Positions 7,407 through 53,132 of a stretch of 64,000 bases of DNA are shown one piece after another. The number at the start of each line of letters is the position of its first letter. The first letter of the stretch is position 1. Source of the stretch: an archaeon. Its GTDB lineage: Archaea > B1Sed10-29 > JAJRYS01. The notes under the pieces are model-generated. The model worked only from the letters and a program-made list of their open reading frames with translations, made no database searches and was not told the DNA's origin. The DNA is taken from the NCBI GenBank assembly GCA_024275665.1, contig JAJRYS010000016.1, forward strand, positions 3,050 through 67,049, read 5' to 3'. Position numbers and translations under genes: made by a program.

Positions 7407-8310
7407 GTGGCACTTTCAAATTTTCAATTAGTAGATATTTTTAATGATGAGTTAATTGAGACCAGAGTTAATAATGAATACTTGGATGAAAGGTTAAATG
7501 AAGGAATAAAAAATAAGAAAATTTCAGGAGAACAGTGGTTTAGAAATCCTCAAGATTGGTACTCGATAACAGCTTACGCCAATCCTTACAAGACTCCTTT
7601 TTCAGAGCTTAAGATTTTGTTAAAAGAACAAGAAAATCTCAAACCATTGTTAAAAAACACTCTGAAAATATTTTATGGAGTTGGTATAGGTGAGACAGAA
7701 ACAGTTCCTGTTGAATGGGATTTACAGGATAATAAGTACTCTGAAGTGATTGGAATAGATATCATTGAATTTTTTCATAAAAGGTTTTATTTACGGATTA
7801 AGAAATTTAGCTCAGGAATACCCTGATAGTAAGATTATGTTTAAAGGGATCAATGGTTTGTTTGAGGATTTAACAAGGGAAAATATTTTTCCTTCTAATT
7901 CTAAGTATGAAAAGTCTTCTCACATTTGCTTTGGCAATACTGTTGGTAATTTTGATCAAGAAGAAATATTTGGGATTTTTAATGATAATATGTTAAAGGG
8001 GGATTTGTTACTACTTGGAATACAACTTGCTTTTGATCCTGATAGAGTACTAAGACAATATGAGAGTAATAAAAGATTTGAAAAATTGCTGGTAAACTCT
8101 ATTAGTAAAAAACTGGAAATAAAGAAGATTGATTGGAAGTGGAACTCTGAGGAAGGTCAGATAGAAGCATGGGCTGGGGATATTTTAGTGTTTAGATCAA
8201 AAAAATATGATGAGGAAGAATTTGAAAATTTTGTAGAAAAACACTCATTTTTAATAGTGAAAAAATTTGTTGAAAGAGATGTTGCATTATACGTTATGAA
8301 AAAAGAGTAA
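7407..8310 (+). pseudogene. EgtD-like (Methyltransf_33) SAM-dependent methyltransferase, disrupted by a frameshift in a T6 run near 7775-7785
   Basis: Two overlapping ORFs in frames 0 and +1 join into VIGIDIIEFF|IKGFIYGLRNLAQEYP...; C-terminal GNTVGNF...DLLLLGIQLAFDPDRVL matches the EgtD motif LGSTIGNF...LLLGxD; region GC about 30%, against about 40% for its neighbours. Confidence 0.5.
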
Positions 8311-13803: not shown

Positions 13804-13921
13804 GGGCCAGTAGCTTAGTCACTACGCTGGACTTTCACTTACCCTCTTTCAGCGTAGCTAAAATGGTTGGAGCACCCGACTGATAATCGGGAGGCCGAGA
13901 GTTCAAATCTCTCCTGGCCCA
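13804..13921 (+). tRNA. tRNA-Ile (anticodon GAU) with a roughly 40-nt intron at a non-canonical position in the D-arm
   Basis: Acceptor GGGCCAG/CTGGCCC plus discriminator A; intact anticodon arm CCCGA-CTGATAA-TCGGG; T-arm GAGAG-TTCAAAT-CTCTC; D-stem GCTT/GAGC interrupted by an insert that forms the helix CTACGCTG/CAGCGTAG; no encoded CCA. Confidence 0.6.
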
Positions 13922-52129: not shown

Positions 52130-52217
52130 AGTTCACTGGTTTTTTATGTTCCTTATTTCCAATAACTTGTTTTTGTTTTTTTTCCTCATGCTTATTTTCA
52201 AAAAATAGTAATGGTGT

Positions 52218-52283
52218 GAAGGGAGATGGAAGAGACGCTTCATCTTCCCTTTTGGCTGGGTGAGCCTGTCTCTCATCCCCTTC
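52218..52283 (+). repeat. Structured element copy A; conserved core CCTTTTGGCTGGGTGAGCCTGTC enclosed by a long imperfect stem
   Basis: GAAGGGAGATGGAAGAGAC pairs with GTCTCTCATCCCCTTC around the core; a second copy lies downstream of lrp. Confidence 0.45.
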
Positions 52284-52394
52284 AGCTCTTAACGGGGTTG
52301 TTCAGTTTTACCACATCCACCCCCTGCTTATTAGTAAACCCTAACAAATATAAAAGCCTGCTGGCATAAAATAATAAAAAATATTCTTTACAAG

Positions 52395-52898
52395 GTGTCG
52401 TTCTTGAATAAGAAAAACTTACAATTGGATGATATCGACAAGACTATTATTAAAACACTGTCCAGTGATTCCCGTAAGTCTTCAAGGCAGCTTGCTTCAG
52501 AACTCGGTGTGTCTCATCAGACTGTTCTCTCGCGTATAAGACAGCTTGAAAAAGCAGGAGTGATAAAACAATACACTCTCGTAGTTGATTTTGACAAGGT
52601 TGGTTTTCCAGTGAAGACAATGACTCTCATAGAAGCAGGAAAGCTTGGTGATACTGGTTTTAGGAAAATAGAAGAATACTTGAAGTCAGAGCCGTGTTTC
52701 ATTTCAGCTTCTCAGCTTGACGGCACTTTTGACTTATACGTAGTAGGAGTTTTCAGGGACCAGAAGGAGGCCAAGGAAAAGCTCTTAGAACTTAGGAACG
52801 TATTAAGCAAGCATGTTGATTTGAAATCTTTTAAAAATCATGCTATTTGGCAGACCATAAAGCACACGCACAGTGTCAATATTTCCTTAGACGAATGA
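52395..52898 (+). CDS. lrp: Lrp/AsnC-family transcriptional regulator
   Basis: N-terminal HTH (LDDIDKTIIKTLSSDSRKSSRQLASELGVSHQTVLSRIRQLEKAGVI) plus a C-terminal RAM domain. Confidence 0.75.
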   Translation: MSFLNKKNLQLDDIDKTIIKTLSSDSRKSSRQLASELGVSHQTVLSRIRQLEKAGVIKQYTLVVDFDKVGFPVKTMTLIEAGKLGDTGFRKIEEYLKSEPCFISASQLDGTFDLYVVGVFRDQKEAKEKLLELRNVLSKHVDLKSFKNHAIWQTIKHTHSVNISLDE

Positions 52899-52954
52899 CG
52901 ATAAAGCGAAAGGTTTATATATTCGTTTTTAATAAATGTTTAATTGCGCTTTCT

Positions 52955-53029
52955 AGGAGAGGATTCGCATTTCCCTCTTTCTAGGGTAGGATGCTCTTTT
53001 GGCTGGGTGAGCTTGTCCTTATCCTCTCC
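52955..53029 (+). repeat. Structured element copy B; core CTCTTTTGGCTGGGTGAGCTTGTCC enclosed by the stem AGGAGAGGAT / ATCCTCTCC
   Basis: About 80% identity to the core of copy A; closing helix differs in sequence but remains self-complementary. Confidence 0.45.
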
Positions 53030-53132
53030 GCCCATTTTTCACTGAAAACAACAGCCTTAAGGCTATTCAACTTATTTTAACAAAAACTCTTTTCGTCTAA
53101 CGTCAAACTCTAATACGTTAATTATTTAAACG

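Follow-up and report, generated by a model that had tools for sequence, protein, structure and literature searches.

Why would two copies of one GC-rich sequence stand on either side of a regulator gene in DNA that is otherwise rich in AT? The question is raised by a 64-kb stretch of archaeal DNA (contig JAJRYS010000016.1 of assembly GCA_024275665.1; hereafter, the window), where a gene for a regulator of the Lrp/AsnC family (lrp; 52395-52898, plus strand) lies between two such sequences, here called elements A and B. From the sequence comparisons presented below, A and B are small structured-RNA genes, conserved together as a single module in a Micrarchaeota clade, and lrp is an optional passenger of that module.

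Two direct repeats around lrp

A repeat search over the window finds a direct repeat of 22 nt, CTTTTGGCTGGGTGAGC(C/T)TGTC, at 52249-52270 and 52996-53017, with 95% identity and a spacing of 747, and so recovers the core that an earlier note on this DNA had described as common to the two copies. The 17-mer CTTTTGGCTGGGTGAGC occurs exactly twice in the window, and at up to one mismatch, none of 100 dinucleotide shuffles of the window gave any match to it; a search of the window with the 12-mer alone, tolerating two mismatches, was uninformative. The GC content is 0.55 in element A and 0.51 in element B, compared to 0.29-0.31 in the surrounding intergenic DNA, and the elements are thus GC-rich islands in the AT-rich setting that the earlier note had pointed out. 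The self-complementary closing arms that it described are found at 52218-52236 and 52268-52283 for A, and at 52956-52964 and 53021-53029 for B, and the open reading frame (ORF) between the elements does encode an Lrp/AsnC-type regulator.

Conservation in Micrarchaeota, with or without lrp

The nearest homologues of lrp, at 48-57% identity, and of the neighbouring HTH_3 protein, at up to 92%, both come from metagenome-assembled genomes of Candidatus Micrarchaeota and from metagenomes. To judge from these matches, the host is a Micrarchaeota-like (DPANN) archaeon. Syntenic loci, given L numbers here, were gathered by exact-protein look-up, a B-specific DNA pattern and a protein-guided metagenome scan, and a covariance-model search was then run over all of them. 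We see that A and B reappear in the corresponding position in about 15 related genomes, with an invariant hairpin GGCY-GGGYG-AGCC, and that genes and elements recur in the order PRC-barrel, PRC-barrel, A, lrp, B, HTH_3. The pair is always found between PRC-barrel genes (a radical-SAM gene in L001/2) and the HTH_3 gene, with one A and one B per locus. L110 (1996-2500) has the whole module turned round between its PRC-barrel and HTH_3 genes, with the mutual order and orientation of A and B kept.

The distribution of the pair is narrow. A strict B pattern, applied to 185,579 species genomes (one per species), matched four Micrarchaeota once each, together with 15 chance matches in other bacteria and archaea, mostly of high GC content. 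The protein-guided metagenome scan yielded 80 loci, including three close relatives at 68-69% identity, two of which carry the pair, while the third (L029) lacks upstream DNA; the A-B pair is absent from the remaining metagenome loci, which are at most 54% identical. Neither element was found in loci from other archaea in which the HTH_3 protein is at most 57% identical. L114, with an HTH_3 protein 60% identical, has B only, and L010 shows B alone because the locus ends before the expected position of A.

The gene lrp is flanked by A and B in the window and in L001/2, L003, L006, L021, L108, L109 and L112, but it is absent from between them in five distinct loci: L022 (with its identical duplicate L107), L024, L027, L028 and L110. 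The spacing of the elements is about 320-340 nt in these loci, and tblastn detects no remnant of lrp there. In a tree of the HTH_3 protein, in which L110 was not placed, the lrp-less loci fall in two separate places, with L022 as sister to the window, which implies at least two losses of lrp. The lrp-less spacers retain the TATA box beside A, meaning that the deletions did not end at the elements. In short, lrp is incidental to the module, and sits between the RNA genes in some lineages.

The persistence of the pair in these five loci removes the earlier suggestions of an lrp riboregulator and of a terminator pair, as well as that of cassette ends or ends like those of a miniature inverted-repeat transposable element (MITE). 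The first two of these belong to a wider reading, in which the elements act in cis as regulatory segments of lrp mRNA (a 5′ leader or riboswitch, and a 3′ terminator) or are sites of Lrp autoregulation. Such a reading draws on the flanking position in the lrp-bearing loci listed above, and on a motif recurring near promoters in relatives, TTGGACAAA, which could be a regulator site. We consider it highly improbable, as the constant association with lrp that a leader or riboswitch calls for fails wherever lrp is missing, and the candidate promoters are separate: there is a TATA box between A and lrp, and B has its own B recognition element (BRE) and TATA box past the lrp stop codon, as well as its own T-run. 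Nor do helices that change in sequence yet keep their pairing behave as protein-binding DNA.

The second reading takes A and B for the termini, as MITE-like inverted repeats or attC-like sites, of a mobile element or cassette by which lrp was moved. It could account for the presence or absence of lrp between the repeats depending on the genome, and the elements are indeed imperfect palindromes with bulges. However, the repeats are direct and not inverted, and they show neither terminal inverted repeats nor target-site duplications. There is a single A and a single B per locus, and synteny holds between genomes that share only 60-82% identity in the neighbouring protein. The identity of lrp rises and falls with that of the gene beside it, a sign of vertical descent. 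No further or dispersed copy was found in the sequence searched, which comprised the window and the loci rather than whole genomes. The elements are not deletion break points, since the lrp-less spacers keep the promoter region, and neither element has the R″/R′ boxes of an integron attC site (RYYYAAC/GTTRRRY). Taken with the TATA box of lrp itself and the vertical synteny, this makes the mobile reading extremely improbable. A tempting annotation is thereby corrected, in that the repeats are neither control elements of lrp nor the ends of a cassette.

As a separate observation, many relatives have the motif TTGGACAAA(C/T), in one orientation or the other, close to the TATA box that lies between A and lrp, and again some 22 nt before the BRE/TATA of B. 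It is seen in L002 (about 2385-2395), in L005 and L006 between the TATA box and lrp, in L021 (about 2880), in L108, L109 and L112 (about 2250-2265), and in L110, L024 and L027, so that lrp-less loci have it too; it was not seen in the window. The motif may be a candidate site for a regulator controlling both RNA genes.

Structure and covariation of element A

The structured domain of element A (52218-52283) comprises a closing helix, P1, with arms at 52218-52236 and 52268-52283, which surrounds a hairpin, P3, and an A-rich linker. In a plain MAFFT alignment of eight orthologues, P1 has 13 pairs, 12 of which have changed on both sides, and 88% of cells are paired. Controls with slid partners pair in 48-61% of cells, compared to 85-88% observed, and the covariation score is reached by none of 500 shuffles. 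With 15 copies, 13 pairs carry double changes, and again none of 500 shuffles reaches the score. The closing helix of A is 17-20 bp long. P3 (52254-52266) reads GGCU-GGGUG-AGCC on the plus strand and GGCU-CACCC-AGCC on the minus strand, and its stem is invariant in 15/15 A copies, apart from position 4, which is C or U. A CCC that is specific to A (52247-52249), placed 3-4 nt from P3 and present in 14/15 A copies, is proposed to pair with the GGG of the P3 loop (52258-52260). L110 has CCU in place of CCC and a loop AGG (AGGUG) in place of GGG, and this joint change is compensatory, which supports a pseudoknot in A. Finally, a hairpin adjoining the domain, P4, shows two covarying pairs.

The earlier note had read a covariation-like signature into both closing helices. 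This stands for A, where further copies bring compensatory changes (12/13 pairs, 0/500 shuffles), but not for B, whose closing helix GGAGAGGA/UCCUCUCC is sequence-invariant among orthologues and for that reason carries no covariation.

A covariance model, R1, was trained on eight A copies. It scores A in the window at 72.7 bits (52214-52288) and recovers 15/15 A copies at 37-78 bits, including seven copies outside the training set at 37-62 bits. B copies are recovered weakly, at 19-30 bits or as local matches to the hairpin, and nothing other than A and B was matched within the window and about 490 kb of other loci.

The elements have no counterpart in Rfam

With Rfam 15, the single cmscan hit in the window at the gathering threshold is a tRNA (13854-13914), and no hit falls on A or B in any of the 20 loci scanned. 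At E-values up to 10, with the window and 26 loci searched overall, no family recurs over the elements. These data support the view that A and B are structured RNA elements, with compensatory variation, forming a small RNA family absent from Rfam, in agreement with the first of the candidates offered in the earlier note. The alignments and model coordinates are enough to seed an Rfam-type family and to seek transcripts in existing metatranscriptomes.

Several known classes of RNA were considered and set aside. For a tRNA, including split or permuted forms, ARAGORN gave no hit, and between 51800 and 53400 no tRNA model matched at E-values up to 10; the loop of P3, YGGGYGA, does not have the form of a T-loop, and P3 of B is set off from the closing helix by 4-9 nt. 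The sole feature recalling the acceptor end of a tRNA is the 7-8-bp stem of B followed by RCC. An archaeal H/ACA small RNA (sRNA) is not indicated, as ACA follows the helix only in B of L002, with GCCCA, CACCGA, GCCUUAA, UACC and others as the remaining tails; there is no conserved GA/GA pair, and the helix of A has 17-20 bp against a lower stem of about 9 bp. Neither the C box RUGAUGA nor the D box CUGA of archaeal C/D box sRNAs is conserved in the alignments of A and B, and the boxes that would define a K-turn are absent. Similarly, 5S rRNA, SRP RNA and RNase P RNA gave no Rfam match, and their size and motifs do not fit.

We also asked whether the conserved core might encode a small protein on either strand. 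Open frames do cross P3, such as 52226-52369 (plus) and 52133-52276 (minus), each of 47 aa. The frame across P3 is not conserved among orthologues, core substitutions are non-synonymous in all frames, and the complementary changes in the arms are no coding signature; arms made up of purines only or pyrimidines only are free of stop codons by composition. The probability of a coding function is therefore next to negligible. By the same token, a type I toxin-antitoxin system does not fit, because no ORF on either RNA has a conserved frame or start codon.

Element B is read from the plus strand

Element B is predicted to give an RNA of about 90 nt (52945-53039, plus strand) with a short leader, a closing helix P1 (52956-52964/53021-53029), a variable hairpin P2 (52973-52986), P3 (53001-53013), a tail GCCCA and a U5 run (53035-53039). 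Its promoter (52906-52921, plus strand) comprises a BRE-like GCGAAAGG and a TATA box TTTATATA. Among the B copies, which were aligned by hand using anchors, the promoter consensus is a BRE-like GAAA(S)(S) followed by TTTATATA, and the TATA box ends 33-38 nt upstream of GGAGAGG in 14/16 copies. The layout consists of the invariant helix, the variable P2, a U-rich joiner, P3, a joiner of 4-9 nt and a tail starting with RCC. A T-run starts 5-9 nt past the helix in 10/16 copies. The P2 hairpins of orthologues, as read from the sequences, contain seven G.U and no A.C cells on the plus strand, and the summed minimum free energy favours plus by 23 kcal/mol. The assignment of B as a plus-strand RNA of about 90 nt is thus well supported by its predicted signals and folding.

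Some individual copies of B depart from this layout. The window copy has an internal direct repeat, 52949-52972 (CTTTCTAGGAGAGGAT...) and 52977-53000 (CTTTCTAGGGTAGGAT...), with 79% identity, found in this genome only, which gives the 3′ arm a second, weaker pairing partner. In L111 (about 2367-2445), B keeps its promoter and the GGAGAGG/CCUCUCC helix, and P3 has diverged (CCUUGGGUGGGCC). In L010 (about 7560-7610, minus strand) and L114 (about 1520-1568), the two most basal loci that carry B, the helix is followed by a long tail of C and U only (e.g. UACCUUUCCCCCUUCCCUUCCCCCUUUCC), and not by a simple T-run.

The strand of element A

The strand of A is harder to assign, and different parts of the element speak with different clarity. 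The region 52284-52326 would form the 5′ part of a minus-strand RNA; in relatives it contains GGAGGUG and the 8-bp hairpin P4. By its pairing, the strand of P4 is shown to be minus: the paired share of P4 cells is 97.2% on minus, where 10 cells are G.U, and drops to 86.1% on plus, where two are. When the 15-copy A alignment is fitted to a plus-strand model, it gives 21 A.C or C.A cells compared to 12 G.U cells. Read on plus, the fourth pair of P3 is either U-A or C.A, which on minus becomes U-A or U.G; C is present in 8/15 copies.

Signals around the element also point to minus. The TATA box between A and lrp (52347-52356), which persists in lrp-less loci, is TTTTATATTT on minus in the window; among the loci it reads (AAGG/AACC)TTTATATA on that strand and so resembles the promoter of B, although it is palindromic and could serve lrp on plus too. 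From the end of this TATA box to GGAGGTG there are 21-30 nt on minus in 11/15 loci, and GGAGGTG is found at a fixed 56-62 nt before P3. Together, the spacing and the fixed position imply that a minus transcript would begin at GGAGGUG. Right past P1 on minus, T-runs of 4-7 occur in 8/15 loci; in the window the candidate terminator is an A6 on plus (52200-52205), that is, a U6 on minus, 13 nt beyond P1. Overall, we lean towards a minus-strand reading of A. The earlier note had placed both copies in the same orientation; this holds for the DNA, where they are direct repeats, but not for the orientation in which they would act, copy A probably being read from minus.

A number of observations weigh against a minus-strand A. 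P1 of A is strand-neutral, with 13 A.C and 12 G.U cells, and arm-duplex energies of −234 versus −242 kcal/mol. An arm alignment with symmetric scores leans to plus, with 51 G.U and 34 A.C cells. The identity between A and B in the same orientation extends past P3 into the 3′ arm (14/17 in L022, 29 nt in L109), for which paralogy on one strand, or gene conversion, is the simpler explanation. Finally, the T-run after a minus-strand A is missing in 7/15 loci, and the part with GGAGGUG and P4 is degenerate in the window (GGGGGUGGAUGUGG...).

These points lead to the alternative that A and B are ordinary paralogous sRNAs, both read from plus and keeping P3 for a common protein or target, with the minus-strand transcript of P4 and GGAGGUG as something separate, possibly antisense. 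The two elements have a common architecture, in which a purine-rich 5′ arm is followed by P3 adjoining a pyrimidine-rich 3′ arm; the R1 model matches B full-length on plus (E = 1e-5 to 2e-3), and the identity through P3 and the 3′ arm and the excess of G.U in the symmetric arm alignment, both noted above, would follow. The P3 loop GGGUGA and the purine-rich arms resemble a Shine-Dalgarno sequence, and the pyrimidine-rich arms and tails an anti-Shine-Dalgarno sequence. There are also G.U pairs in the outer P1 of L003 and L006, several loci have AAAC-TTTTTATATT, which is like a BRE/TATA, some 70 nt before A, and L114, with B only, makes A look like the later duplicate. However, the promoter candidate for A on plus falls on the T-run that serves the upstream PRC gene as terminator, the distance of this candidate is variable and the leader is unconserved, and there is no T-run past A on plus. 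The fourth pair of P3 would be C.A on plus in 8/15 A copies, and P4 pairs poorly on that strand. Cognate duplexes of A and B, both read from plus, have a mean of −51.0 kcal/mol compared to −50.0 kcal/mol for non-cognate ones, and so give no signal of a plus-plus interaction. On balance, plus-strand paralogy is a possible but rather unlikely explanation.

A proposed pairing between A and B

If A is read from minus and B from plus, direct DNA repeats are read in opposite directions, and the invariant hairpins of the two RNAs become exact complements, with loop GGGUG facing CACCC. The loops, which would be those of a kissing sense-antisense pair, are then complementary in all genomes; the complementarity covers 13 nt in every genome, and extends to 24 nt in the window and to 29 nt in L109. 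An evenly poised proposal, in our judgement, is that these are two lrp-independent RNA genes, minus-strand A and plus-strand B, that would meet by loop-loop pairing as an sRNA and its anti-sRNA. We infer from the strand features and complementarity a minus-strand action of the main domain of A and its pairing with B, and by extension a target that the pair would regulate.

The proposed A RNA would be about 120 nt long. It would be transcribed from a B-like TATA box placed back-to-back with lrp, would start at the Shine-Dalgarno-like GGAGGUG, and would contain in order GGAGGUG, the 8-bp P4 and the long covarying helix around GGCU-CACCC-AGCC, the loop CCC of which would pair with a downstream GGG to form a pseudoknot. 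Through their kissing loops the two RNAs would meet, so that one might antagonise or partner the other. The pseudoknot partner GGG imitates the loop of B, which suggests a competition between a closed state of A and a B-bound state.

Differences between the A and B cores of one genome are compatible with such a duplex. In the window (twice), L002, L003 and L006, C in element A corresponds to U in element B, and in L110 an adenine of the former corresponds to G in the latter; all of these would yield a G.U wobble in the duplex of minus-strand A with plus-strand B, and never a mismatch. This counts for less than it might, as the argument from the direction of the wobbles draws on few independent changes, and intramolecular constraints on each hairpin could explain them equally. 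It also counts against pairing that the loop of A is partly taken up by its own pseudoknot.

The 5′ GGAGGUG of A is identical to the Shine-Dalgarno consensus of a subset of window genes, and in L111 it is paired with CACCUC in a different hairpin. Speculatively, it may bind to 16S rRNA at the 3′ end, or it may be hidden in the way seen in L111. Going one step further, we can tentatively picture a self-contained two-RNA switch, in which A arose by partial duplication of B, read backwards from a new promoter, which would leave the two hairpins permanently complementary, and in which GGAGGUG, a perfect Shine-Dalgarno sequence, docks on the 16S 3′ end or is freed when B binds; of the two proposals, this is clearly the more doubtful, and we think it unlikely to hold in full.

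Other features of the window

Two features outside the module were also seen. Ahead of the HTH_3 TATA box (CGTTAATTATTTAAA), at a distance of 10-15 nt, there is a conserved motif, TGTCTAAC; it is present at 53095-53130 in the window and in L002, L010, L021, L024 and L108-L112, and is probably a promoter-proximal regulator site. At 13805-13921 (plus strand) lies a tRNA gene with the anticodon loop CUGAUAA (Ile-GAU-like) and an insert of about 40 nt in the D-arm, which interrupts the acceptor and D region. Rfam covers only model positions 7-64 of this tRNA, at 13854-13914, and ARAGORN misses it. The insert looks like a non-canonical intron of the type reported for ARMAN/Micrarchaeota.

Comparison with known systems

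DPANN archaea have genomes of about 1 Mb and depend on host cells. To our knowledge, almost nothing is known of regulatory RNA in these organisms, and a search of the literature on noncoding RNA in Micrarchaeota and DPANN found nothing relevant. The presence of a conserved, apparently unique RNA pair in a reduced genome suggests that it has an important role. Among archaeal RNAs, HgcC, HgcE, HgcF and HgcG are similar in setting, being GC-rich islands in AT-rich DNA (0.51-0.55 against 0.29-0.31 here) with an archaeal TATA box and an oligo-T end; they differ in that cmscan gives no match of A or B to any of them, even at E-values up to 10.

In their proposed mode of contact, A and B recall the kissing-loop antisense pairs of bacterial plasmids, CopA/CopT of R1 and RNA I/RNA II of ColE1, in which two structured RNAs have exactly complementary loops, and where pairing that starts loop to loop could extend, here over 13-29 nt. 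In the plasmids, both RNAs of a pair are encoded in cis, by the two strands of a single DNA segment. A and B would instead owe their complementarity to direct repeats that lie about 0.3-0.8 kb from each other on an archaeal chromosome and are transcribed in opposite directions, with pairing that is predicted from sequence. The divergent type I toxin-antitoxin pairs of Escherichia coli, shoB-ohsC, zorO-orzO and tisB-istR-1, with their short complementarity in trans, are alike in being neighbouring divergent genes with complementarity of about 18-23 nt and RNAs that do not overlap. They differ from A and B, which are without a conserved small hydrophobic ORF and both look noncoding.

A further likeness would be to the sponges, or anti-sRNAs, of enterobacteria, SroC-GcvB, AgvB-GcvB and 3′ETS-leuZ-RyhB, as one RNA would sequester the functional site of another. 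We know of no archaeal example of an sRNA sponge or anti-sRNA. In enterobacteria, the sponges have no sequence relationship with the RNAs that they bind and mostly come as by-products from other transcripts, whereas A would be a gene dedicated to this role, descended from a duplicated copy of the RNA that it targets. If the two elements are indeed read from opposite strands, they would provide a concrete case in which an sRNA has gained an antagonist of its own through duplication and backward reading, the antagonist bearing a Shine-Dalgarno mimic at its 5′ terminus. It would be the first sRNA/anti-sRNA module described from a DPANN archaeon, and one in which an antisense regulator evolved by an unusual route.

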